From: a virus
DNA length: 64,000 bases
Strand: one strand, 5' to 3'
Virus record (IMG/VR): IMGVR_UViG_3300034691_000037
Span: 1-64,000 of that record
Within the stretch, counting starts at the first letter, position 1. The number at the start of each line of letters is the position of its first letter. Below, in pieces: positions 1,352 through 53,116 of this stretch. The notes under the pieces are model-generated. The model was not told the origin of the DNA. It searched no databases and was given only the letters and a program-made list of their open reading frames with translations. Both the position numbers and the translations under genes were made by a program.

Positions 1352-1633
1352 TTAAACCCTCGCCTTAGCTTTCAATGCGGCCATCAATTTTTTAAACGCT
1401 GGATGCCTGATAACGTCAGCGAGTTGACCAGCGGCGTACTTCATGATATCTTTCATCATCATGTTGCAACGCAGCACGTCGTCAACCATGAGCGCTTTGA
1501 TGTCATCGCTGTAAGTCTCAGCCTGTACGCTACCAAGCGTCTCCTCGATCGCTAGAAGGCGTTTGTTAAGGTCGCTGTAAAGCTCAGCCATCAGCTGGAG
1601 TTGCTCAGGAAAATCTTTGTTCATTTTGTTCAC
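1352..1633 (-). CDS. Hypothetical helical protein
   Basis: ORF tightly packed in operon. Confidence 0.7.
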   Translation of the reverse strand: MNKMNKDFPEQLQLMAELYSDLNKRLLAIEETLGSVQAETYSDDIKALMVDDVLRCNMMMKDIMKYAAGQLADVIRHPAFKKLMAALKAKARV

Positions 1634-1657
1634 CTTTGAACAGGATGGGGAATTAAA

Positions 1658-2203
1658 TTAAGATCGTGCAGCCGCGCCCGGCAGTACCCGAGTCAGATCT
1701 TCCAGATACAGGATTTTGTGGGCATAGAAATCCAGCACCAATATCAGAGGTACGTGACGGACAGGATCATTACGGTCCATCACGATGCCGCTGTCAGTGC
1801 GGAAGAATGGAATGTTGTAGACAGTGTCAGTAGGTGTGTGGCGAACCTTTACAGCGCTGCCAGTGAGATGGCTGAACTGATTAATCCGAGACTGCACGTA
1901 GTCCTTAGGGTGTGTCGTGAGACGATCCTTGTGGCACTCCACCAGCTCTTTCAGTTCATCATTGGTCAGAGTGATTCGGTCCTTGCTGAACTGAGCCAAT
2001 ATGCCATTGACATCGATGAAGACCTTCTTGTCGTTGTAGCCAACGACACTACGTTTTGTTATGTTACCGTTATTATCGGTAAACGGGAGCCTGACATGGG
2101 TCTGACACGATGCAACGATGCTGATCAGCAAGGTATCAATATCGTCGTGTTGGAAATAGTACTTCACCTTACGCATCAAATTTTTAAACATGCCAATCTC
2201 CAT
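1658..2203 (-). CDS. Hypothetical protein
   Basis: 181-aa ORF in gene string. Confidence 0.75.
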   Translation of the reverse strand: MEIGMFKNLMRKVKYYFQHDDIDTLLISIVASCQTHVRLPFTDNNGNITKRSVVGYNDKKVFIDVNGILAQFSKDRITLTNDELKELVECHKDRLTTHPKDYVQSRINQFSHLTGSAVKVRHTPTDTVYNIPFFRTDSGIVMDRNDPVRHVPLILVLDFYAHKILYLEDLTRVLPGAAARS

Positions 2204-2213
2204 GAATAGGTGT

Positions 2214-2239
2214 GCCAGCTAGGGTCATTCCTAGCTGGC
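2214..2239. terminator. Intergenic hairpin
   Basis: gccagctagg-gtcatt-cctagctggc. Confidence 0.6.
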
Positions 2240-2248
2240 TTATTAAGG

Positions 2249-3694
2249 TTAATAGACGTCGTCGCCTTTAGGACCTTTGTTTTTCGTGTGTTTTGACGAC
2301 AGGACTCGGCTGGAAGGGTCTGTAAAAGAGTCTTTAAGATGGACTCCCTTTAGTTCCAACATACGCGGCCGGTGCATTCGAGCCAGGATTTGCGTATCCA
2401 TGTGGGCCGGCAGGATATAAGGGAATACCATGCTTTTAGCGGCAGGATCTACTTTACCCAGGGATTCAAGCCTATCCGCAGCCGCCTCGGCTTCTTCCTT
2501 AGTCCCCAGAAGATCGTGATAGAAATTACCGACCTTCGGGCTCGGTAATACCGAATCCTGCACTTGCACCTGGCTGCCCCAATACAGCTTTCCCACAGGC
2601 TCCTGGGCAACCTCTTCTTCAACCGGTACCGGGCGTTTATCCGCACTGACTATGACACTATCTTTAGTAGCAGTGTAGGCACGCGCACCACGGTGTACGA
2701 CTACTTCAATGTTACCAGGCAGTTTATGATAAAGCTGGTATTTACCTTCTTCATCACAGCTGATATCGAACTCTTCGAACAGGTCAATGCCGTGTTCATC
2801 ATTCTTGATGTGCAGGGCAAATGAACGAAAGTCCGTCATGTCGAAGGTCAGGTCTTCCCTGTAGAACTGCTTACCAGCGACTTGGACACTGGCCAGGTTA
2901 TATTCGTAGTGGTACATGCCGGGTACGTTCAAGATACGTACGCGTTTTACCAACGATTTCCAGTCAGCGCACTTAGCCGCTTCTTTACACACGAACTTCA
3001 GAATATCGAAGCTCATGATAGAAGCGTCGCCCTGAGCCCATTCACGCAGTGACGGCCGAAGCTGATGAGGAACGTTGAAAGCTTCCATCATCTCAACCAC
3101 TACCTGGTCTTCAATACCGCGATACTGAATCCAGTACTTGATTCGACCAGGGCGGTTGATCAAGAAATTGTTAATGCCACTGGCCTCGTTGACGGTCATG
3201 ATAAACAGGATTTTCTTAAGATCGCTGTCACTGAACAGAGTCAGCAGCTTCTTCTGGTCGTCCTCGTCGTAGATCTTTTCGAATTCATCGAACATGACCA
3301 TAGCGCCACCAGGGCATGCCATCACGGCAGCCTTGATCATGCCAGGTGGAATACACGAATCAACCATGAACACCGGAATGTCGGCGATCAGTGATTTGTT
3401 TGCCAGCGCTTCGGCCAAGACCGTTTTACCGCAGCCTTTATTGCCGAACAGCATAGCGCCGGTGGCGCCTTCGGTAGAGCGCCAGTCATCGTACAGCAGT
3501 TCCAGGAATTCCTGGTTCGAACCGTACAGGCGTTCAGGAACGTTGAAGTTCTTACGGTCCTTGACAAGCACCAGGTTCATATTGCCGTCGATGTTCAGCT
3601 TGTAAACATACGGCGGGATATGGTCAATCAGGTTGCTGTTGTCAACCTGTTGGAAAACGATACCCCAATCACGAGAACTTAATACTGTTGGCAT
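2249..3694 (-). CDS. AAA+ ATPase
   Basis: Walker A GNKGCGKT, Walker B VMFDEFEK, SRH LINRPGRIKY. Confidence 0.9.
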   Translation of the reverse strand: MPTVLSSRDWGIVFQQVDNSNLIDHIPPYVYKLNIDGNMNLVLVKDRKNFNVPERLYGSNQEFLELLYDDWRSTEGATGAMLFGNKGCGKTVLAEALANKSLIADIPVFMVDSCIPPGMIKAAVMACPGGAMVMFDEFEKIYDEDDQKKLLTLFSDSDLKKILFIMTVNEASGINNFLINRPGRIKYWIQYRGIEDQVVVEMMEAFNVPHQLRPSLREWAQGDASIMSFDILKFVCKEAAKCADWKSLVKRVRILNVPGMYHYEYNLASVQVAGKQFYREDLTFDMTDFRSFALHIKNDEHGIDLFEEFDISCDEEGKYQLYHKLPGNIEVVVHRGARAYTATKDSVIVSADKRPVPVEEEVAQEPVGKLYWGSQVQVQDSVLPSPKVGNFYHDLLGTKEEAEAAADRLESLGKVDPAAKSMVFPYILPAHMDTQILARMHRPRMLELKGVHLKDSFTDPSSRVLSSKHTKNKGPKGDDVY

Positions 3695-3755: not shown

Positions 3756-4040
3756 TTACGATGCGTGCATGCAGCTACGCAGATACCTGGTTTGTACTGC
3801 CATCAATTCGTCGATCTGGTCAGTGATCATGCGCTTGGTGCGGGAGAGCTCATCCATCTGAACTTGCAGATGGGAAGTATCGACGTGAGCCATCATCATG
3901 CCGACTTTCTTCAGCGACAATGCCTGATACTGCTGAGTCAGGTCATCACGGTACTTACGAAGCAGTGCCATTTCGTTACCGAACTCAACGTTAGTCTGGA
4001 CAAACGTGTCATCGTACTGCAGGGTGTTAATGCCAGTCAT
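3756..4040 (-). CDS. Small coiled-coil protein (early)
   Basis: AGGAGG RBS, own promoter motif upstream, heptad pattern. Confidence 0.8.
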   Translation of the reverse strand: MTGINTLQYDDTFVQTNVEFGNEMALLRKYRDDLTQQYQALSLKKVGMMMAHVDTSHLQVQMDELSRTKRMITDQIDELMAVQTRYLRSCMHAS

Positions 4041-4099
4041 GAAGCAGGCCCTCCTTAGGGCAGGTATAAATATTGCAATGAGTGGGGGTGTACGTCAAA

Positions 4100-4115
4100 G
4101 CAATGTATGACTGTA
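4100..4115 (-). promoter_or_regulatory. Putative phage early promoter
   Basis: TACAGTCATACATTGC; motif recurs upstream of about 10 gene units. Confidence 0.65.
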
Positions 4116-4122
4116 ATTATTT

Positions 4123-4422
4123 TTAATCGGGTAGATCGAGGTCATTACCCTCATCCTCCAAAGGCGTGTATGTCATGACCCCGTGCATTTTGTTAACCTG
4201 TCCGACGGCCGCTTCGATAGTGGTCTTATCGAAATCAAACCTGGCGCTATGGATCTTGTTGATGGTGTCGATACGCCACAGCTCAGCCGCATCTGGATCA
4301 TGGTACATCTTACGCTCGACACCGAGTAGTTTAGTGCGCTGAGGACCATCCAGCTGAGTAGCGGCAAAGATAAGCTTTGCTTCAGCCGAGGTAAAGAATT
4401 TGTTTTCAGGCTGGTTTGACAT
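4123..4422 (-). CDS. Small protein with J-domain-like helical hairpin (HPD replaced by HSA)
   Basis: LLGV...AELWR..INKIHSAR...AAVGQVNKMHGVM pattern; start MSNQP after AAGGAG. Confidence 0.6.
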   Translation of the reverse strand: MSNQPENKFFTSAEAKLIFAATQLDGPQRTKLLGVERKMYHDPDAAELWRIDTINKIHSARFDFDKTTIEAAVGQVNKMHGVMTYTPLEDEGNDLDLPD

Positions 4423-4957
4423 TATCGACTCCTTTAAGTGGGAACTCTTTGTGCAGGCGCTCAACGATGTCTTTCTTTGAGAACCAGTTCAGTTTACGGC
4501 CGTATGCGAGTTTGTTCTCTTGTACGAAATTCGTGACGGCTTCCTTATCCGGCTTAGCTATCAAGAAACCCATGAGCAAATCCCGGTCACTGTCGTTTAC
4601 TGTCATGGCGATTGATTTTGCTTTGCCAACTGGCATTGCCCAGCTGCTCATTCCCATGAGGTTCTTGCCTTTCTCGGTATCCGCAAAGGCATCTACCTGC
4701 CAGACTTCGCCGTAATGGTCAATCAACATCCAACTGAGACCACTGGTCGCATCGCGCACATGACCCGGCATTGGCGGTCTGCGGTTTTCAATGATTGCAC
4801 TGTAGTTGAGGTCAAAATCATTCAACGGCGCAACAAAGCCGTACTTGGTATAAAAGTGATCGAACGTCAGGCCATGCGCCGTCCAATGAAGACCTTCCAT
4901 AGAGACAGGAGTTGTCTGTAACCCCACCTCTTCGCCAATCCAAACGATCAGGCTCAT
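4406..4957 (-). CDS. Hypothetical protein, possibly a degenerate Ntn-fold partner of the upstream gene
   Basis: ATGA-coupled to the Ntn-like gene; similar length and N-terminal beta pattern (MSLIVW). Confidence 0.6.
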   Translation of the reverse strand: MSLIVWIGEEVGLQTTPVSMEGLHWTAHGLTFDHFYTKYGFVAPLNDFDLNYSAIIENRRPPMPGHVRDATSGLSWMLIDHYGEVWQVDAFADTEKGKNLMGMSSWAMPVGKAKSIAMTVNDSDRDLLMGFLIAKPDKEAVTNFVQENKLAYGRKLNWFSKKDIVERLHKEFPLKGVDNVKPA

Positions 4958-13715: not shown

Positions 13716-13731
13716 GTAATGTATTGCTGTA
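13716..13731 (-). promoter_or_regulatory. Putative phage early promoter
   Basis: TACAGCAATACATTAC just downstream of a terminator. Confidence 0.65.
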
Positions 13732-14729: not shown

Positions 14730-14735
14730 TGCTCA

Positions 14736-14990
14736 CTACCTTTGTTTAAACAAATGACGATAGTTGGTTGAGACGTAAACGCCCATGGCGTAGAGGCATG
14801 CAAGAATCAATACCGCTGGCCAGCACACCATCACCAACCATACTTGCCAGTCGGGGATGTAAGTGATGCCTTGATCACGTTTATCCCAATCTTCAGGATA
14901 CTTGTAATAGATCCAGATTTCATGGGCAAACAAACCAATGACGCCAATGACCCATACAGCGATGAGTAAGTAACCGATATAGTCAAGCAT
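14736..14990 (-). CDS. Small 2-TM membrane protein
   Basis: Two hydrophobic helices; CWP motif similar to 24926..25207. Confidence 0.65.
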   Translation of the reverse strand: MLDYIGYLLIAVWVIGVIGLFAHEIWIYYKYPEDWDKRDQGITYIPDWQVWLVMVCWPAVLILACLYAMGVYVSTNYRHLFKQR

Positions 14991-15681
14991 GTTTTGCGAC
15001 CTTATCCCATCCGGGATGTTTCCACTGTGCCCGATCAACCACATTGGCTGTCAGCAAATATTGAGTACCAAGCTGTATCGCCAAATCTCGTGCTGCTCGC
15101 TTTGCTTCGTTAAGAGTCGGGATGCCTTCCTTGTGGAGTTCGTGGATGAAAGAGTTGGTCTCATTGAAGGGACCACGCTTTCGCGAGAAGTTCATTACGA
15201 TGGGATTGCCCGTTACGTGGGTCTGTTTGATCTTTCCATTGAGCATCCTGTACAGACGCATCAATGGATCTTCCCTGGACGCCATGGTTTGGATCGAGAT
15301 GAAATACTCACTCGTTTCAGGGTAAGTAAACAAGTTGATCTTGTAGCCGAGGCCGTCAGTACCACGAGTGTTCTGAACGACAAGCTTGCCTTTAAGGAGC
15401 ATGCGCAGTCGGTACTTGTGGACAGTCAAGCTAGCGACGTACCCAAGCGAACAGTAGAAGAACTCAACGCGATCTTCAGGAGAGATGGGATAACGTGCTT
15501 TAATAAGCGAACCAACTTCTCCATTAACTGCCTGATGCAGACGGCGCCGTAAGCTGTTGGCGCAGAGTACGTCAAAGTGATGATCGGACCTATCGCGGAT
15601 AAGTACCAGCCCACTACTTTCCGGCAGTGACTCTACTTCATTGCGACAGACTTGTTTAAAGTCATAAGAGCCAAATTTCAT
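14983..15681 (-). CDS. Hypothetical protein with degenerate GIY-YIG-like N-terminus; paralog of 31736..32404
   Basis: LPESSGLVLI...ANSLRRRL; C-terminal half aligns with the 31736 ORF. Confidence 0.6.
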   Translation of the reverse strand: MKFGSYDFKQVCRNEVESLPESSGLVLIRDRSDHHFDVLCANSLRRRLHQAVNGEVGSLIKARYPISPEDRVEFFYCSLGYVASLTVHKYRLRMLLKGKLVVQNTRGTDGLGYKINLFTYPETSEYFISIQTMASREDPLMRLYRMLNGKIKQTHVTGNPIVMNFSRKRGPFNETNSFIHELHKEGIPTLNEAKRAARDLAIQLGTQYLLTANVVDRAQWKHPGWDKVAKHA

Positions 15682-15733
15682 GATAAGATCCCTTGGTGGA
15701 TATATAAGCAGATGTCTTAGTTGATACTTACAG

Positions 15734-15763
15734 CATAAAGACCTGCCGAAGCAGGCCAGTATG
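15734..15763 (-). terminator. Hairpin ending the non-coding block
   Basis: cctgc-cgaa-gcagg with CATA/TATG flanks. Confidence 0.55.
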
Positions 15764-16360
15764 GGAGGTACTACTGCACTGATGCTCCATCCGGCTGCGA
15801 GGTCTTTTCCATCATCCTGATGTCCATATGTTCTATTCGCCCTTACGAGGGGTTGTAACAATCGCAATACGGTACCAGTACAGTATCTGCTGCAGCAGAT
15901 TAGGCGCCCGCGGCACGCACCTATTCGCTCCTGCCCGAGGCTTCGGCACGGCAGGAATTACTTAGTGGACCGCAGGCATAACACTTGAAACAGGCCCGAG
16001 AGGCGGGACTTGAACCCACGACCTTTACCCTGAGGAGCGACCTTAAGGTAACGTTCTAACCAACTGAAACTACTCTCGGATATAGCTACCCTCGTCCCGA
16101 AGGACCTGCCTACACTAGCAGCAACTAACCTTTAGGGTCAACGCTACAAATTGGGGTCCGGACCAAGACACTCCATTCCTACGACAGTTTAGAAGGTACA
16201 ACAAGGCCGGCTGACCCGTTTATACTCGGATAAGGTTTCCCAGCATCTATAAAGACGCAGCCGATAAATAGGCGCTCGCGCACCGGCGGTAGCGGCAACA
16301 AAATGGCCAGCTGCCTTAAGCCGCCACGTTACCCCCAGGCGCGAGCATTGCGGTTTCTCT
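15764..16360 (-). ncRNA. Putative structured non-coding RNA block surrounding the tRNA-like gene
   Basis: No credible ORF; multiple complementary stems and junctions visible by eye. Confidence 0.5.
15995..16079 (-). tRNA. tRNA-like gene with 17-nt anticodon loop (identity undetermined)
   Basis: Acceptor CCGAGAG/CTCTCGG, D arm GTTT-CAGTTGGTTA-GAAC, anticodon stem TTACC/GGTAA, variable AGGTC, T arm GTGGG-TTCAAGT-CCCGC, G73, no encoded CCA. Confidence 0.8.
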
Positions 16361-16366
16361 ACATAC

Positions 16367-16942
16367 CTATACGGGCTTTAGTAAATAGTTACTGGCATAC
16401 ATCTGTAACATAGACGTAGGAACGCCTAGCTTGTCGAGATCCGAAATGGTCGCTGTAACGTCATTCAGCACAAGCGTACCATTAGGGCGGTAAAGAATAC
16501 GTACGCTTTGAATGCAATCTGGCATATTTTCACTAAGCCACTTCATTCGAAACAGCGTGAGTTGCGCAACCTCTTCACTGACCGTGTTTTCAACCCAAGT
16601 GGAACTATTGCGGTGGATGGCCGAGTATGAATACTCATTACGTTCATCAACGACTTCCACTTGCCAGCGGCCAGCGGCTGTGTACAGGGAGACCTGATCG
16701 ACAATACCGCCAAGTTTTTTAGCCACCATCTTCAATAGGTCTGGGTGGTAGTTGTGGTCACCCATCAAAGACTTATTGCCACACAGTTCATCTAACAGGT
16801 CTGGATCGACATCTTCTACAGTGCCATTGGGGTGGATGACCTCAAGTCCGTACCACTTTGGATAGTTCTCCATTGTGATAACCGGTAACGTACCAACGGT
16901 TTGGCAGATCAGTGGAATCTTTCGCGATGATACAAACGTCAT
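16367..16942 (-). CDS. Hypothetical protein
   Basis: Start MTFVSS after GAGGG. Confidence 0.7.
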   Translation of the reverse strand: MTFVSSRKIPLICQTVGTLPVITMENYPKWYGLEVIHPNGTVEDVDPDLLDELCGNKSLMGDHNYHPDLLKMVAKKLGGIVDQVSLYTAAGRWQVEVVDERNEYSYSAIHRNSSTWVENTVSEEVAQLTLFRMKWLSENMPDCIQSVRILYRPNGTLVLNDVTATISDLDKLGVPTSMLQMYASNYLLKPV

Positions 16943-16958
16943 TTTGAAACCCTCGTTA

Positions 16959-17477
16959 TTACCAGCCAAGCCAAGAAAGTTGTTTTGTCTCTGGATAATA
17001 CCTGCCGGAATCACTGCGTTCAATAACCGCCATATGTCCAAAGAGGGCAGGGATGGGTGATGGGTCACCTAATTCAATAGACCGCTCGGTGCGAAGATGT
17101 GCATCACCGACAACAACGCACACAGTGCCCTTCAGACGATAACGTTCTATCATCTTCACCATGTGTCGCTCACGGCGTTTAAACTGCTCAGCGAGCGGTA
17201 GGTGCGTCAGCCCGTCTACATCCAGATCAATGCCCACTAACTTAATGTCGTGCGCAAGGCCTAATTCGTAAATGTCTTTGTTTAGCCGTGGGTCGCAGAT
17301 ACCTCCATCTTTACAATGATGGAGTCTTTGTTCAATGACTTCTTTGGTCAGAGCCAAATCGGCGTACAGCAATTCGTGCAAAAGGTAATCTGGTTTGATA
17401 TTGGCGATCTTTGCATCGATCTTTGCAATCTCCTTAAGTTTAGAATGATCCTCACCGAAGAAGTATAATTTTGACAT
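16959..17477 (-). CDS. EreA/ChaN/TraB(Tiki)-like metallohydrolase-fold protein
   Basis: FFGEDH, LLHEL, LVGID, RRERHM, VVVGDAHL. Confidence 0.6.
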   Translation of the reverse strand: MSKLYFFGEDHSKLKEIAKIDAKIANIKPDYLLHELLYADLALTKEVIEQRLHHCKDGGICDPRLNKDIYELGLAHDIKLVGIDLDVDGLTHLPLAEQFKRRERHMVKMIERYRLKGTVCVVVGDAHLRTERSIELGDPSPIPALFGHMAVIERSDSGRYYPETKQLSWLGW

Positions 17478-17529
17478 AGCGGTTACCTCAAAGACACCAC
17501 GGTCTTTTGACCGTGGTGTGTATGTCAAC

Positions 17530-18237
17530 TTACTGCGCGTTGAAGAAGGCACTAGCGTTGACAAGGATCTGGTCCTTGCGAACTATCGTATCGTACAGAT
17601 ACAGAGCACCTTCTTCGTTTTCCGATAATGGTTCTGGGATGTCGCCATGCCACAGCGCTTCCAGCGCAGTCCTGTTGTGGTTTGTTAGGAGATAACATTT
17701 GTGACTGAGCTTATCGTGCAATACAACGCCTTCGGCCCCACGCAACTGACCCAACGCTTTGTTCGTTTTGAAGAACTCACGGAAGATAGCAAGTTGCCGG
17801 TAAGTTAACCGAACTTCGCTAAGGATTTCAGCGGTGTTGGTAAACGAAGCCGGCAGTTTGAAGGACAGCGTGTCTTCAAGTTCACGACCAGGGTTGAAGA
17901 ACTCGTCGCTAACCTTAAAATTACGCACAGGCATAGCGAACTTTGAGTTTTCTATGCAGACGATGCTAGCCAGCCGCGATGGATCGTGAGTGCCATTCAC
18001 GACCAGACTTAACTTCAGATCCCCTGTGATCGGTTCGCCACTGATCAAGTCCATCACGTCGGTGCTGATTGCGACACCATCGCCGACCCAATCGTCTTTT
18101 GGAATTACGGGATATTCGTTACTGTCCCCAGGGATCGTGAGACACCAACCATCACGCTCAAAATATTTGAATTCCAACTCCACGTCATTCCCCTTGCTTA
18201 TTTTGGATAGCGGCGGCCAGAACGATACCTCGGACAT
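17530..18237 (-). CDS. Hypothetical protein
   Basis: Long ORF in gene string; start uncertain. Confidence 0.7.
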   Translation of the reverse strand: MSEVSFWPPLSKISKGNDVELEFKYFERDGWCLTIPGDSNEYPVIPKDDWVGDGVAISTDVMDLISGEPITGDLKLSLVVNGTHDPSRLASIVCIENSKFAMPVRNFKVSDEFFNPGRELEDTLSFKLPASFTNTAEILSEVRLTYRQLAIFREFFKTNKALGQLRGAEGVVLHDKLSHKCYLLTNHNRTALEALWHGDIPEPLSENEEGALYLYDTIVRKDQILVNASAFFNAQ

Positions 18238-40810: not shown

Positions 40811-40844
40811 CATACAGGCAGGGCTTAACTGCCCTGCCTGTATG
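40811..40844. terminator. CATA/TATG-closed hairpin
   Basis: 14-bp perfect stem catacaggcagggc/gccctgcctgtatg. Confidence 0.75.
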
Positions 40845-48697: not shown

Positions 48698-50920
48698 TTA
48701 ACGGGCGATTGGCATCACCTTTGTGTTCGGTACAGGATCATAACCCGTAATAGCAAAGTCATCGATCGTGAAGTCATCGATGCTGGACACTTTGCGGGTA
48801 ATGTGCAGTTGTGGATTATCATTTTGATAGTCGGTGTAGATAACCTCGTCGACCAGGGCGGTTTGTGAATTGTAGATGTGGGAGTCGACCCCCATGATGA
48901 ACATCTCACGGGCCTCCATACCGACCACTTCAGCCACCATGCGGGTCAGCACAGCGTACTGAGGCGTGTTGAAAACGCCGCCAGCTGGCACATCCCAGCT
49001 GCGTAGTACCACAGCAATGCTGAGCCAACGTGTAGGAACGCCTTTGATGACAGCAAACTCTTGAGCCCACTTCAGGTAAAGCGCATCATTAGAGTCTTCC
49101 TCGGACGTCGCTAAAGCGACGTCTTTGAAGTGCCCGATGTACTCGCCAGTCAGATCGAGCTTGGCAAAGTCTTCCTCAAAGTCGCGAAGGTCTTTCTCGT
49201 GGCTGATGAACTGGAAGTACAGGTGGCACGGCTCAAGTGCTGCTTGCCAGTTTGTGCCTGGGTTGCAGGAGGTCACGTAGATCCGCCGGCTATCAGGATC
49301 TTTCTTAAGCATGTCGATAGCGTTCTGCAGCTGATCGATTTCTCGATGTACTACAATGGAGCCACAGTGAGCATTCACCATGTACTCGTTGTCAGGACTA
49401 CCTGGAGATACATCAGTTACGTGAACGTAACCCTGCTTTTCAAACTGCGGCCATTCGTCCCGATGAATCAGTTGCGTATCTTGGTAACGTCGCCATTGCG
49501 GGCCGTAAGCACCCTTACCAATATCTGCGTCAATCAACTTGTACTGACTGATACCCAGCTCTGTCAGCGTGATACCCAGGCAGGCTGCTACGATGCTGCG
49601 GATATCGACCTTCTGGAACTTATCGTCTTTGAAGATCTCAATCTTGACAAGTTCCCCCGCTTCCAGGATAGACTTACCTGTAGCGTTCTCCGCAAGGTTT
49701 TCCCACGGTTCATCGATCACTGCGTTGATCTTGTCCCACTTTTCTTTGTCGTTCTTGGAGACACGGTTCAGACGAGTCTGGAGAGATACGGGCTTCACCG
49801 CAGGGTGTGTGATTTCAGAAGGAACGTTGTGCTTTGTCAGCCAGTCACTGATCTGGTCAACTTCGGATTGGAACAAGTCCCAAGGTCCGGTAATTGACGG
49901 ACAGAGTTCCACGTTCAACTCAGCATAAGTGTTACTGGCCGTATCGCGAACCAAACCTTCTTTAAAATCGCAGAACTCGTACAGCTTCCGTTCCAGACCT
50001 TGTGCATGGGCCTTTTTGATACGGTCAAGGAAGCCGATAATCGTTGGTTTCGGCACTTCAGTTGTAGGTATGCCGATAGTGGTTAGTACTTTACCGATAC
50101 CTACTTCTTTAGTACCAGAAATAGCTACGGTTTCAATCTGGCCGTTTTGAACAACTTTGATTAACGTAGGTTCATCACCTGTGTTAACTTTGTTGTACAA
50201 GACCGAAAACGCAATCCCGTTAACTAAACCCCAATGTTCAACATTGTCTTTAGGGATAAGGTCCAAACGTTCTTGTAAGGTGAGGGTTCTTCCGCCGGCC
50301 TTTTGGTTGATATAGCCACAGCCCAGATCTTTGATAATCCAGCAACCAAGCAGCAGTGCTTGGAAGCGAGTCATGGTGACCTTCAATGAGCCGTTCTTTA
50401 CATTGATGTTGACATCCTGAGGGTCAACCGGATAGTCTTTACCGGAGAACTCTAAATCAATGATCGGTTGCCATTCGCACTTTGGAATCCCCGAAAGGAT
50501 AAGGGCGCTTTGCAGCTCATCGAAAGAAGGCCTGGCCGGAATGGATTGAAACAGCGTTGTGAACGGCAAGACACCATGGGCATCGACGTACATGTCGGCC
50601 AGTTCATCGATGTTGTACGGTACAGGTTCTTCGTACTTGTCAGTGCCCGGAATGAACCAGCTGTCCCAGATGCCGACGTTGTTATCTTTCAGGTACTTGA
50701 TGCTGGAACTGCCCGACACGAACCAGAGCATCTCGTGGATGAACTTCTCTGGGCGGATAACGCGCAGCGATGTGATCGGCAGACGGTTATTGCGCAGGTC
50801 ATGACGCATCCAACCCGCCAGCGCTGAGAGGGTACCCACGCCGGTACGATCGCCTTTGTCCAGGCCGTGTTGGTTAATGAAGCGATAAATGTCTTTGTAC
50901 TGACTATCAATTGCTCGCAT
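48698..50920 (-). CDS. thyA: Thymidylate synthase with about 370-aa internal insertion
   Basis: DRTGVGT, EMLWFVSG, IWDSW, YGPQWR, DPDSRR, ALEPCH, RSWDVPAGGVFN, DSHIY. Confidence 0.92.
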   Translation of the reverse strand: MRAIDSQYKDIYRFINQHGLDKGDRTGVGTLSALAGWMRHDLRNNRLPITSLRVIRPEKFIHEMLWFVSGSSSIKYLKDNNVGIWDSWFIPGTDKYEEPVPYNIDELADMYVDAHGVLPFTTLFQSIPARPSFDELQSALILSGIPKCEWQPIIDLEFSGKDYPVDPQDVNINVKNGSLKVTMTRFQALLLGCWIIKDLGCGYINQKAGGRTLTLQERLDLIPKDNVEHWGLVNGIAFSVLYNKVNTGDEPTLIKVVQNGQIETVAISGTKEVGIGKVLTTIGIPTTEVPKPTIIGFLDRIKKAHAQGLERKLYEFCDFKEGLVRDTASNTYAELNVELCPSITGPWDLFQSEVDQISDWLTKHNVPSEITHPAVKPVSLQTRLNRVSKNDKEKWDKINAVIDEPWENLAENATGKSILEAGELVKIEIFKDDKFQKVDIRSIVAACLGITLTELGISQYKLIDADIGKGAYGPQWRRYQDTQLIHRDEWPQFEKQGYVHVTDVSPGSPDNEYMVNAHCGSIVVHREIDQLQNAIDMLKKDPDSRRIYVTSCNPGTNWQAALEPCHLYFQFISHEKDLRDFEEDFAKLDLTGEYIGHFKDVALATSEEDSNDALYLKWAQEFAVIKGVPTRWLSIAVVLRSWDVPAGGVFNTPQYAVLTRMVAEVVGMEAREMFIMGVDSHIYNSQTALVDEVIYTDYQNDNPQLHITRKVSSIDDFTIDDFAITGYDPVPNTKVMPIAR

Positions 50921-51152
50921 TTCTACGTTCCTTAAATTTGCGCCAAGGGGCTGCGTTGAAGAGTCGGCGTACGCCGTATGTCCGAACCATGCCAACGGCG
51001 GCAAAGATCACTACCATGGAAAGGTTATCGTGAAACTGGACGTTTATGCCGTACCAAGGAAATATCACGAGTTGTGTAAGGACGCCTACAGCAAGACCAA
51101 TCACGGTACCGGCTACCGTTTCTATTAATGACGCAACTTTAGTCTGTTGCAT
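50907..51152 (-). CDS. Small 2-TM membrane protein
   Basis: MQQTKVASLIET...RTYGVRRLFN; coupled to thyA. Confidence 0.75.
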   Translation of the reverse strand: MQQTKVASLIETVAGTVIGLAVGVLTQLVIFPWYGINVQFHDNLSMVVIFAAVGMVRTYGVRRLFNAAPWRKFKERRNASN

Positions 51153-53100: not shown

Positions 53101-53116
53101 ATAATGTATTACTGTA
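53101..53116 (-). promoter_or_regulatory. Putative phage early promoter
   Basis: TACAGTAATACATTAT. Confidence 0.65.

Follow-up and report, generated by a model that had tools for sequence, protein, structure and literature searches.

What does a phage gain from a gene that has kept almost the whole shape of a tRNA, while its anticodon loop has grown from 7 to 17 nt? The question is raised by an 85-nt element in record IMGVR_UViG_3300034691_000037 (86.7 kb, estimated to be 35% complete), of which the first 64 kb form the window (64,000 nt), and for which an earlier note had offered several answers side by side. Four internal head proteins of the phiKZ type (PF12699) are encoded, which identifies the record as part of the genome of a phiKZ-like jumbo phage, ~240 kb in size; the probable source run is a peat metagenome. 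The element is the sole tRNA-type match in the 86.7-kb record, and its parts are as follows.

16079 (5') to 15995 (G73), minus strand: tRNA-shaped gene of 85 nt, delimited by Rfam RF00005, ARAGORN, direct reading and alignment to tRNA-Asp.
16079-16073 / 16002-15996, minus strand: acceptor stem, 7 of 7 bp.
16070-16053, minus strand: D arm, with an extra U in the T run 16069-16067.
16051-16047 / 16029-16025, minus strand: anticodon stem, UUACC/GGUAA, 5 of 5 bp.
16030-16046, minus strand: anticodon loop, UUAAGGUCGCUCCUCAG, 17 nt versus the canonical 7.
16024-16020, minus strand: variable loop, AGGUC.
16019-16003, minus strand: T arm, stem with 5 of 5 bp (one of them U.G) and T loop UUCAAGU.
15992-15994, minus strand: CCU 3' of the discriminator base G73; A76 is not encoded.

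The Rfam model RF00005 recognized the gene with 46.4 bits (gathering score 29; E 1e-6 over the window; model positions 1 to 71), on a scale where canonical tRNAs from related phages reach 53 to 73 bits, and its alignment places a 15-nt insertion in the anticodon loop. Both this alignment and direct reading give the 17-nt loop, 10 nt over the canonical length, that had been reported before, the letters given then being the minus-strand reading. The 3' end, described as G73-CCT with no CCA, was likewise read directly at 15995-15992 (minus strand). All tertiary invariants are kept (U8, G18G19, A21, G53, U54U55C56 and A58). The earlier description of four intact stems, a GG-containing D loop, a TTCAAGT T loop and a 5-nt variable loop holds in that everything is paired or present, except that the D stem contains an extra U. 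Here the sequence is GUUUC where tRNA-Asp has GUUC, and in place of a regular 4-bp D stem with an adjoining A14 there is either a bulge in the D stem or an A14 shifted out of register. Infernal treats the base as an insertion with lowered posterior, and it appears as a 1-nt gap in the alignment to four tRNAs. ARAGORN, when run without introns, named the gene only "tRNA-???". A class II reading by the same program (6-nt loop CUUAAG and a long variable arm) requires a mismatched stem, and it was rejected because the class I structure gives a perfect 5-bp anticodon stem and an Asp-type AGGUC variable loop.

One might suspect an artefact of assembly or sequencing, given that the record is a metagenome contig and that the T run of the D stem is a homopolymer. 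However, an independent Logan assembly of the probable source run is identical over positions 15400 to 16700 at ~83x, and colinear contigs come from a peat RNA library and a freshwater DNA run that belong to other studies. The freshwater contig (X4, 151 nt) covers positions 16027 to 16177, including the whole loop, with five substitutions and no gap; in this strain, ~3% diverged, the loop length is unchanged. The peat RNA library (X2) provided contigs for 15405-16024 and 16171-16524 at ~98.7% identity, and the gap between them (16025-16170) is a coverage hole at 4-5x in the contigs that is uninformative on expression or processing. The Logan assembly and X4 speak against an assembly error, which the earlier note had listed as a possible refutation. 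As the source of the expanded loop it is very unlikely, and we give an artefact of either kind almost no weight.

Neither a 7-nt loop with U33 nor a three-base anticodon is found in the gene. In the RNAfold prediction, the loop begins with U32.G and U33-A, passes an A/C mismatch, continues with AGG/CCU and ends in a UCGCU pentaloop, which makes the predicted anticodon arm near-continuous (a 1x1 internal loop, 3 bp and the pentaloop). The AGG/CCT mini-stem proposed before is thus predicted, but ~7% of shuffled or genomic 17-mers fold equally well (p ~0.07), and therefore the pairing does not exceed chance. The GUC inside the loop straddles the predicted mini-stem and is preceded by G instead of U33; the loop lacks a UGU for Tgt, and it exposes no GUC for AspRS. 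As the loop neither has 7 nt nor presents an anticodon, we conclude that the RNA is non-decoding, which is the natural reading of a 17-nt loop and had already been suggested. Two other features of the loop were considered and discarded. The first was an antisense target, an 11-nt complement of the 5' part of the loop located at 1576-1566 (minus strand), in codons 6 to 9 of a small ORF, when 0.29 such complements are expected by chance. The second was the 7-nt direct repeat AAGGTCG, found in the loop and at the variable/T junction, where ~0.19 such repeats are expected in 85 nt.

Decoding would be restored if 10 nt were removed as an intron, leaving either tRNA-Glu(CUC), when cut after U33, or a tRNA with anticodon AAG, when cut after position 37. 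ARAGORN with the intron option (-i) does return tRNA-Glu(CUC) with a 10-nt "intron" after U33, and CUCAG at the 3' end of the loop lines up with GUCAC in tRNA-Asp. Unexplained insertions are also known in tRNA genes of the Lak megaphages, as "enigmatic introns" of ~93 nt that affect several isotypes and are conserved from one cohort to the next (Devoto et al. 2019, PMC6784885). The two cases share the interruption of the anticodon loop and the lack of a known removal mechanism in the bacterial host, but here the insertion is 10 nt long, in one gene of one phage lineage. Such a length is far too short for self-splicing; a group I core needs ~200 nt or more, and no Rfam intron model matched. A short anticodon-loop insertion with an extended anticodon helix in the precursor is also typical of archaeal and eukaryal bulge-helix-bulge introns. 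Unlike these, the gene has no 3-nt bulges 4 bp apart (the bulge-helix-bulge motif is absent from the predicted fold), it belongs to a bacterial-type phage, as the phiKZ-type head proteins point to a bacterial host, and no endonuclease or ligase accompanies it. The splicing endonuclease, RtcB and RNA ligase families (PF01974, PF01139 and PF09414), as well as a CCA enzyme, were absent from the record (35% complete) and from its closest relative, G001 (95% complete); in the controls of the PF01974 search, the endonuclease was found solely in archaea. In addition, an Asp-type body with a CUC or AAG anticodon fits no synthetase's known identity set. The tiny protein-spliced intron suggested before is not supported by these results, and we regard an intron-bearing tRNA as highly improbable.

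The resemblance to tRNA-Asp that had been remarked on was borne out by the best full-length match among 50,697 GenBank phages, an unannotated tRNA-Asp(GUC) of Proteus phage 10 (E 4e-4), which also ranks first in a 51-tRNA panel. The alignment to tRNA-Asp shows near identity in the D arm, at G26 and in the variable loop and T arm. A single compensated pair separates the anticodon stems, the acceptor stem is unrelated, and the gene has one additional base in the D stem and 10 in the loop. Of the features that define the Asp isotype, the body with G73 and G10 is present, and GUC at 34-36 and C38 are not. A tRNA-Asp(GUC) is also found in two relatives, G002 and G004, among their few tRNAs. An origin from an Asp-type tRNA is thus supported by sequence comparison.

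Look-alikes were sought with scans that rely on exact anchor words. The full odd arm gave no match in IMG/VR, and the D arm plus anticodon stem, with any loop of 5 to 30 nt between them, gave none in IMG/VR, JGI metagenomes or GTDB genomes; with these anchors, none of the three collections yielded another genome sharing the expanded loop. The combination of T arm and 3' acceptor strand returned only unrelated tRNA-Leu(UAA) and tRNA-Ile genes, and that of D loop and T arm an unrelated tRNA-Ile(UAU). A scan for Asp-like bodies in which the anticodon region is expanded turned up two unrelated IMG/VR contigs (L032, 12064-12154, minus strand, and L033, ~4633-4725, plus strand) that carry a tRNA-shaped gene of 43.3 bits with Asp-like D and T arms, in which a region of 30 to 34 nt replaces the anticodon arm and the acceptor helix extends to ~17 bp. 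They were rejected as relatives, their expanded parts not being homologous to the loop described here. No match was obtained for a 600-nt region around the gene by blastn against GenBank phages, for the 85-nt element against E. coli genomes, or for the tRNA-like gene in nine syntenic loci of relatives even at E 1.

The genomic context of the element varies among strains, as can be seen when the following features are compared with the closest relative.

16269-15990, minus strand: strain-variable cassette of 280 nt, made of 190 nt of non-coding filler and the tRNA-like gene, delimited by blastn against locus L002.
16367-17068, minus strand: upstream gene, 233 aa, phrog_19982, function unknown.
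14983-15681, minus strand: downstream gene, 232 aa, with homologues of 232 aa and a GIY-YIG-like fold predicted for the N-terminal ~90 residues.

This relative (G001, 237 kb, with loci L002 and L010) has ~91.6% nucleotide identity in the flanks. Homology to L002 breaks at 16270 and 15989 (blastn), and the 280 nt in between are replaced by 536 other nt with a 141-aa DUF7448 ORF; a landfill contig (X3) has the same replacement. The tRNA-like gene therefore sits in a strain-variable cassette of which both alleles circulate, being present in X2 and X4 and absent from G001 and X3. In L002 the DUF7448 ORF occupies positions 3880 to 4305 (plus strand) and comes with its own small hairpin. No ORF of 41 aa or more is present in the 190-nt filler, whose fold z-score is -0.43.

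Strains that differ in the cassette are only 1 to 8% diverged, and no stem damage is seen in the tRNA-like gene. At this divergence a dead gene would look intact too, so the intact stems, which had been taken as an argument for selection, are a weak argument and no proof of it. The tRNA content of the clade is uneven, with counts of 7, 3, 2+, 1, 0, 0, 0 and 0: G004 has seven and G005 three, and no tRNA at all was found in G001, in spite of its 95% completeness, or in G003, G007 and G008. There is no synteny between the tRNA operons of G002, G004 and G005 and the locus described here. In G002, a tRNA-Asp(GUC) and a tRNA-Asn(GUU) are followed by ~1 kb of non-coding DNA (L019, ~1460-2400, minus strand). 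This stretch contains at least five further perfect T-arm motifs inside aberrant tRNA-like units, among them a partial tRNA of 28.7 bits and a 22.4-bit unit that has a 7-bp acceptor stem and no anticodon arm.

All of this could describe a plain pseudogene, i.e., the tRNA-Asp of a decaying locus that lost its function when 10 nt were inserted into the loop and the D stem slipped by 1 nt, and that is not yet eroded but has no present role. Two indels and the loss of A76 separate the gene from the nearest tRNA-Asp, tRNAs dwindle from 7 to 0 in the clade, and the whole cassette is replaced in the closest relative. The unstructured, non-coding 190 nt upstream, the lack of a look-alike family in the exact-anchor scans, the chance level of the extra loop pairing and a strain divergence so low that intact stems are expected even without selection all agree with it. 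On the other hand, neither the 21 stem pairs nor the tertiary invariants show any damage by substitution, indels of this kind usually arise by simple tandem duplication and the insertion is not one, the loop has the same length in the peat and freshwater strains, and the ends of the gene match those of two adjoining hairpins that appear to be under selection (see below). We consider decay without function a plausible explanation, although at less than even odds.

The two hairpins and a third, terminator-like one lie on the same strand.

16270-16346, minus strand: hairpin A, stem-loop 16346-16274 with a G-CCU tail at 16273-16270, preceded by AAU; fold z-score -3.95.
15902-15977, minus strand: hairpin B, stem-loop 15977-15906 with a G-CCU tail at 15905-15902, preceded by UAU.
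15757-15730, minus strand: terminator-like hairpin (15757-15740) followed by TTTATGCTGT, a copy of a recurrent motif.

Hairpins A and B bracket the cassette, and each of them differs from its counterpart in L002 by two compensatory double changes with no broken pair. By this comparison both are demonstrably under structural selection, which argues that units mimicking tRNA ends are being selected at the locus. Hairpin A, the tRNA-like gene and hairpin B have common ends: (A/U)AU, one strand of a 7-bp GC-rich stem, an interior, the other strand and G-CCU. In the 86.7-kb record, 533 GC-rich 7-bp stems spanning 45 to 130 nt were scanned for this signature. GCCT follows the stem in 4 of the 533, and three of the four are hairpin A, the tRNA-like gene and hairpin B, consecutive and all preceded by AT. 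Neither hairpin resembles the tRNA operons of G002, G004 or G005 (blastn-short).

Such ends are reminiscent of RNase P substrates. The C4 RNA of phages P1 and P7 is a natural non-tRNA substrate of bacterial RNase P. Bacterial RNase P also cleaves other hairpins that are not tRNAs, for example pre-4.5S RNA, and its determinants include a U at -1, a 7-bp acceptor-type helix and the pairing of R73-C74-C75 with RNase P RNA (PMC4919922, PMC12710915). The tRNA-like gene has all the features of this type (type A): its acceptor helix of 7 bp stacks on the T stem, R73-C74-C75 follows, and position -1 is a U. As in C4 RNA and pre-4.5S RNA (PMC4919922), a closing helix followed by RCC, with U at -1, is found in the tRNA-like gene and in hairpins A and B; unlike in them, the tail is CCU and not CCA. 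The late-promoter motif of phiKZ is TATG (PMC7598289), and the AT that precedes each unit overlaps it, with an exact fit in hairpin B, where UAU plus the first stem base G reads TATG. The AT therefore need not be an RNase P feature.

Other signals give some indication of how the region might be transcribed. The hairpin at 15757-15730 is likely the end of a transcription unit combined with a start signal for the next gene. It is one copy of a palindromic hairpin that also occurs at 40818 and 62154 of the window and at 71176, 79422 and 84815 of the record, flanked by CATAC...GTATGC or TTTATGCTGT. This hairpin together with a (G/T)TATGC motif recurs genome-wide and is probably a bidirectional terminator with a TATG-type start signal. 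An AT-rich motif, approximately ACAGYAATACATYAY, is shared by positions 53110, 44443, 38945 and 13725 (minus strand) of the window. We consider ACAGYAATACATYAY a candidate early promoter of the phage; it is absent from 15700-16370, and a scan for sigma-70 promoters returned no site.

The reading that we favor, with a probability of roughly 0.45, is that a former tRNA-Asp which no longer decodes persists as the middle unit of a putative array of the RNase P type. This value covers solely a processed, non-decoding unit, a decoy role being judged separately below, and it lies close to that of the pseudogene. Transcription of the minus strand, from the upstream gene or from an unrecognized promoter, would run to the hairpin terminator at 15757-15740. 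Host RNase P would then cut 5' of hairpin A, of the tRNA-like unit and of hairpin B, and the 3' side would be trimmed back to GCC. The RNA thus released, of ~85-88 nt, would keep the elbow and the acceptor end of a tRNA but would be neither charged nor employed in translation. What the phage gains would come from the ends and shape of this RNA, not from an anticodon. It might punctuate the transcript, or it might be a stable RNA that keeps host factors with an affinity for tRNA ends occupied.

Several observations speak for this processed, non-decoding unit. All the stems are paired and every tertiary invariant is kept, the ends are those of two hairpins under structural selection, the loop has not changed length in the freshwater strain, and the Asp-type origin is supported, with tRNA-Asp carried by G002 and G004. 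The aberrant tRNA-like units of G002 offer a parallel. With the RNase-P-type ends common to the three units, the idea of a processing signal for the flanking RNAs, one of those put forward in the earlier note, gains support. Since other strains hold the DUF7448 gene in the same slot, the unit would be accessory. There are also reasons for doubt: the exact-anchor scans brought up no other genome with the expanded loop, the gene is absent from the closest relative, and four complete relatives are free of tRNAs, which fits an ongoing loss. Furthermore, three lesions mark the gene (one extra base in the D stem, 10 in the loop and a U in place of A76), the part of the cassette upstream of it resembles filler over 190 nt, a divergence of 1 to 8% among strains is too low for stem intactness to prove selection, and the end signature could come from a common tRNA ancestor.

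A more ambitious interpretation takes hairpin A, the tRNA-like unit and hairpin B as a purpose-built module of nucleus-forming jumbo phages. Tandem mimics of the acceptor end would bracket a swappable cargo slot, with the tRNA-like unit as just one of the interchangeable cargos, and once released by RNase P they would act on host factors that recognize tRNA ends, for instance as decoys for tail-cleaving immunity, of which Cas12a3 is an example (PMC12851939), or as signals for the handling or export of the enclosed RNA. We find this unlikely.

By analogy with known counter-defences, the tRNA-like RNA itself might be a decoy. During infection it would soak up a host defence or enzyme that binds tRNA-Asp or the ends of tRNAs, for instance AspRS or a nuclease that cleaves anticodons or tails. 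An accessory slot between conserved genes is typical of counter-defence cargo, and the acceptor end and the elbow are intact. Phage tRNAs are known to counter tRNA-targeting defences, and changes in the anticodon loop allow such tRNAs to evade the tRNA nucleases of the host (van den Berg et al. 2023, PMC10264068; Azam et al. 2024, PMC11555353). Here too the anticodon loop departs from that of the host, but the escaping tRNAs keep a 7-nt loop and decode, and the former study makes no mention of insertions or decoys (PMC10264068). A decoy for an anticodon nuclease should keep a recognizable 7-nt loop, which this one does not; the missing UGU (for Tgt) and exposed GUC (for AspRS) also count against a decoy, and the gene is a singleton. 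A decoy role is, in our estimate, unlikely.

The genes around the locus deserve some comment. In the AlphaFold model of the downstream 232-aa protein, the N-terminal domain has a pLDDT of ~90, and Foldseek matched it to the GIY-YIG domain of UvrC (probability 0.99, TM[target] 0.55 to 0.66, E only 0.025), with T4 EndoII and I-TevI among the lower matches; the protein has no Pfam or PDB sequence match. The two tyrosines of the GIY-YIG motif are apparently replaced by Leu and Val. Variants of the gene occur in ~10 Logan contigs. Since it is conserved in all strains, nothing obvious marks it as a mobile homing gene, but a gene with a modelled nuclease fold beside a swappable slot is worth noting. 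A link to a nearby cluster of QueC-like, HD and DHH genes was considered and rejected, as an early-promoter-like motif of its own lies at 13725 and the closest relative, which is free of the tRNA-like gene, retains the cluster. Further non-coding gaps of 250 to 440 nt lie near the locus (14730-14982, 17069-17506 and 17696-17989), a clustering that is unusual in a genome ~92% coding. Elsewhere in the window, a thymidylate synthase ORF of 768 aa (48698-51004, minus strand) matches its Pfam domain in three stretches, which suggests a large insertion, e.g., an intein or an endonuclease domain.

Stable tRNA-like RNAs have been described in phage tRNA clusters, namely, species 1 and 2 of T4 (rnaC and rnaD) and RNA1 and RNA2 of T5. 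Like them, the RNA described here would be phage encoded and non-decoding, with tRNA-like ends, and located among or beside tRNA-type units. In contrast to them, which lack a full cloverleaf, it keeps the four arms and departs from a tRNA by the loop and one base of the D stem. In bacteria, the Y RNA YrlA also has tRNA-like D and T arms and does not decode (RF02553; Chen et al. 2014, PMC4201824), but the gene has no Ro-binding helix, and RF02553 found no match in 15690-16400 even at E 10. Non-decoding phage RNAs with the shape of a tRNA are thus already known, as the T4 and T5 stable RNAs and the Lak "introns" illustrate. What distinguishes this one is a complete cloverleaf with just a 10-nt expansion of the loop, placed between two hairpins that mimic its ends, and it is currently a singleton.

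If the gene is just a pseudogene, it would capture a phiKZ-like lineage in the course of losing its tRNAs, an ordinary event. Should the RNA be transcribed and processed, it would be a clear added case of a phage RNA that has the shape of a tRNA minus the decoding, one in which the whole cloverleaf is kept and the anticodon loop alone is disabled. It would then provide a simple system for asking what phages gain from mimicking the ends of tRNAs, around a slot where the cargo is swapped.
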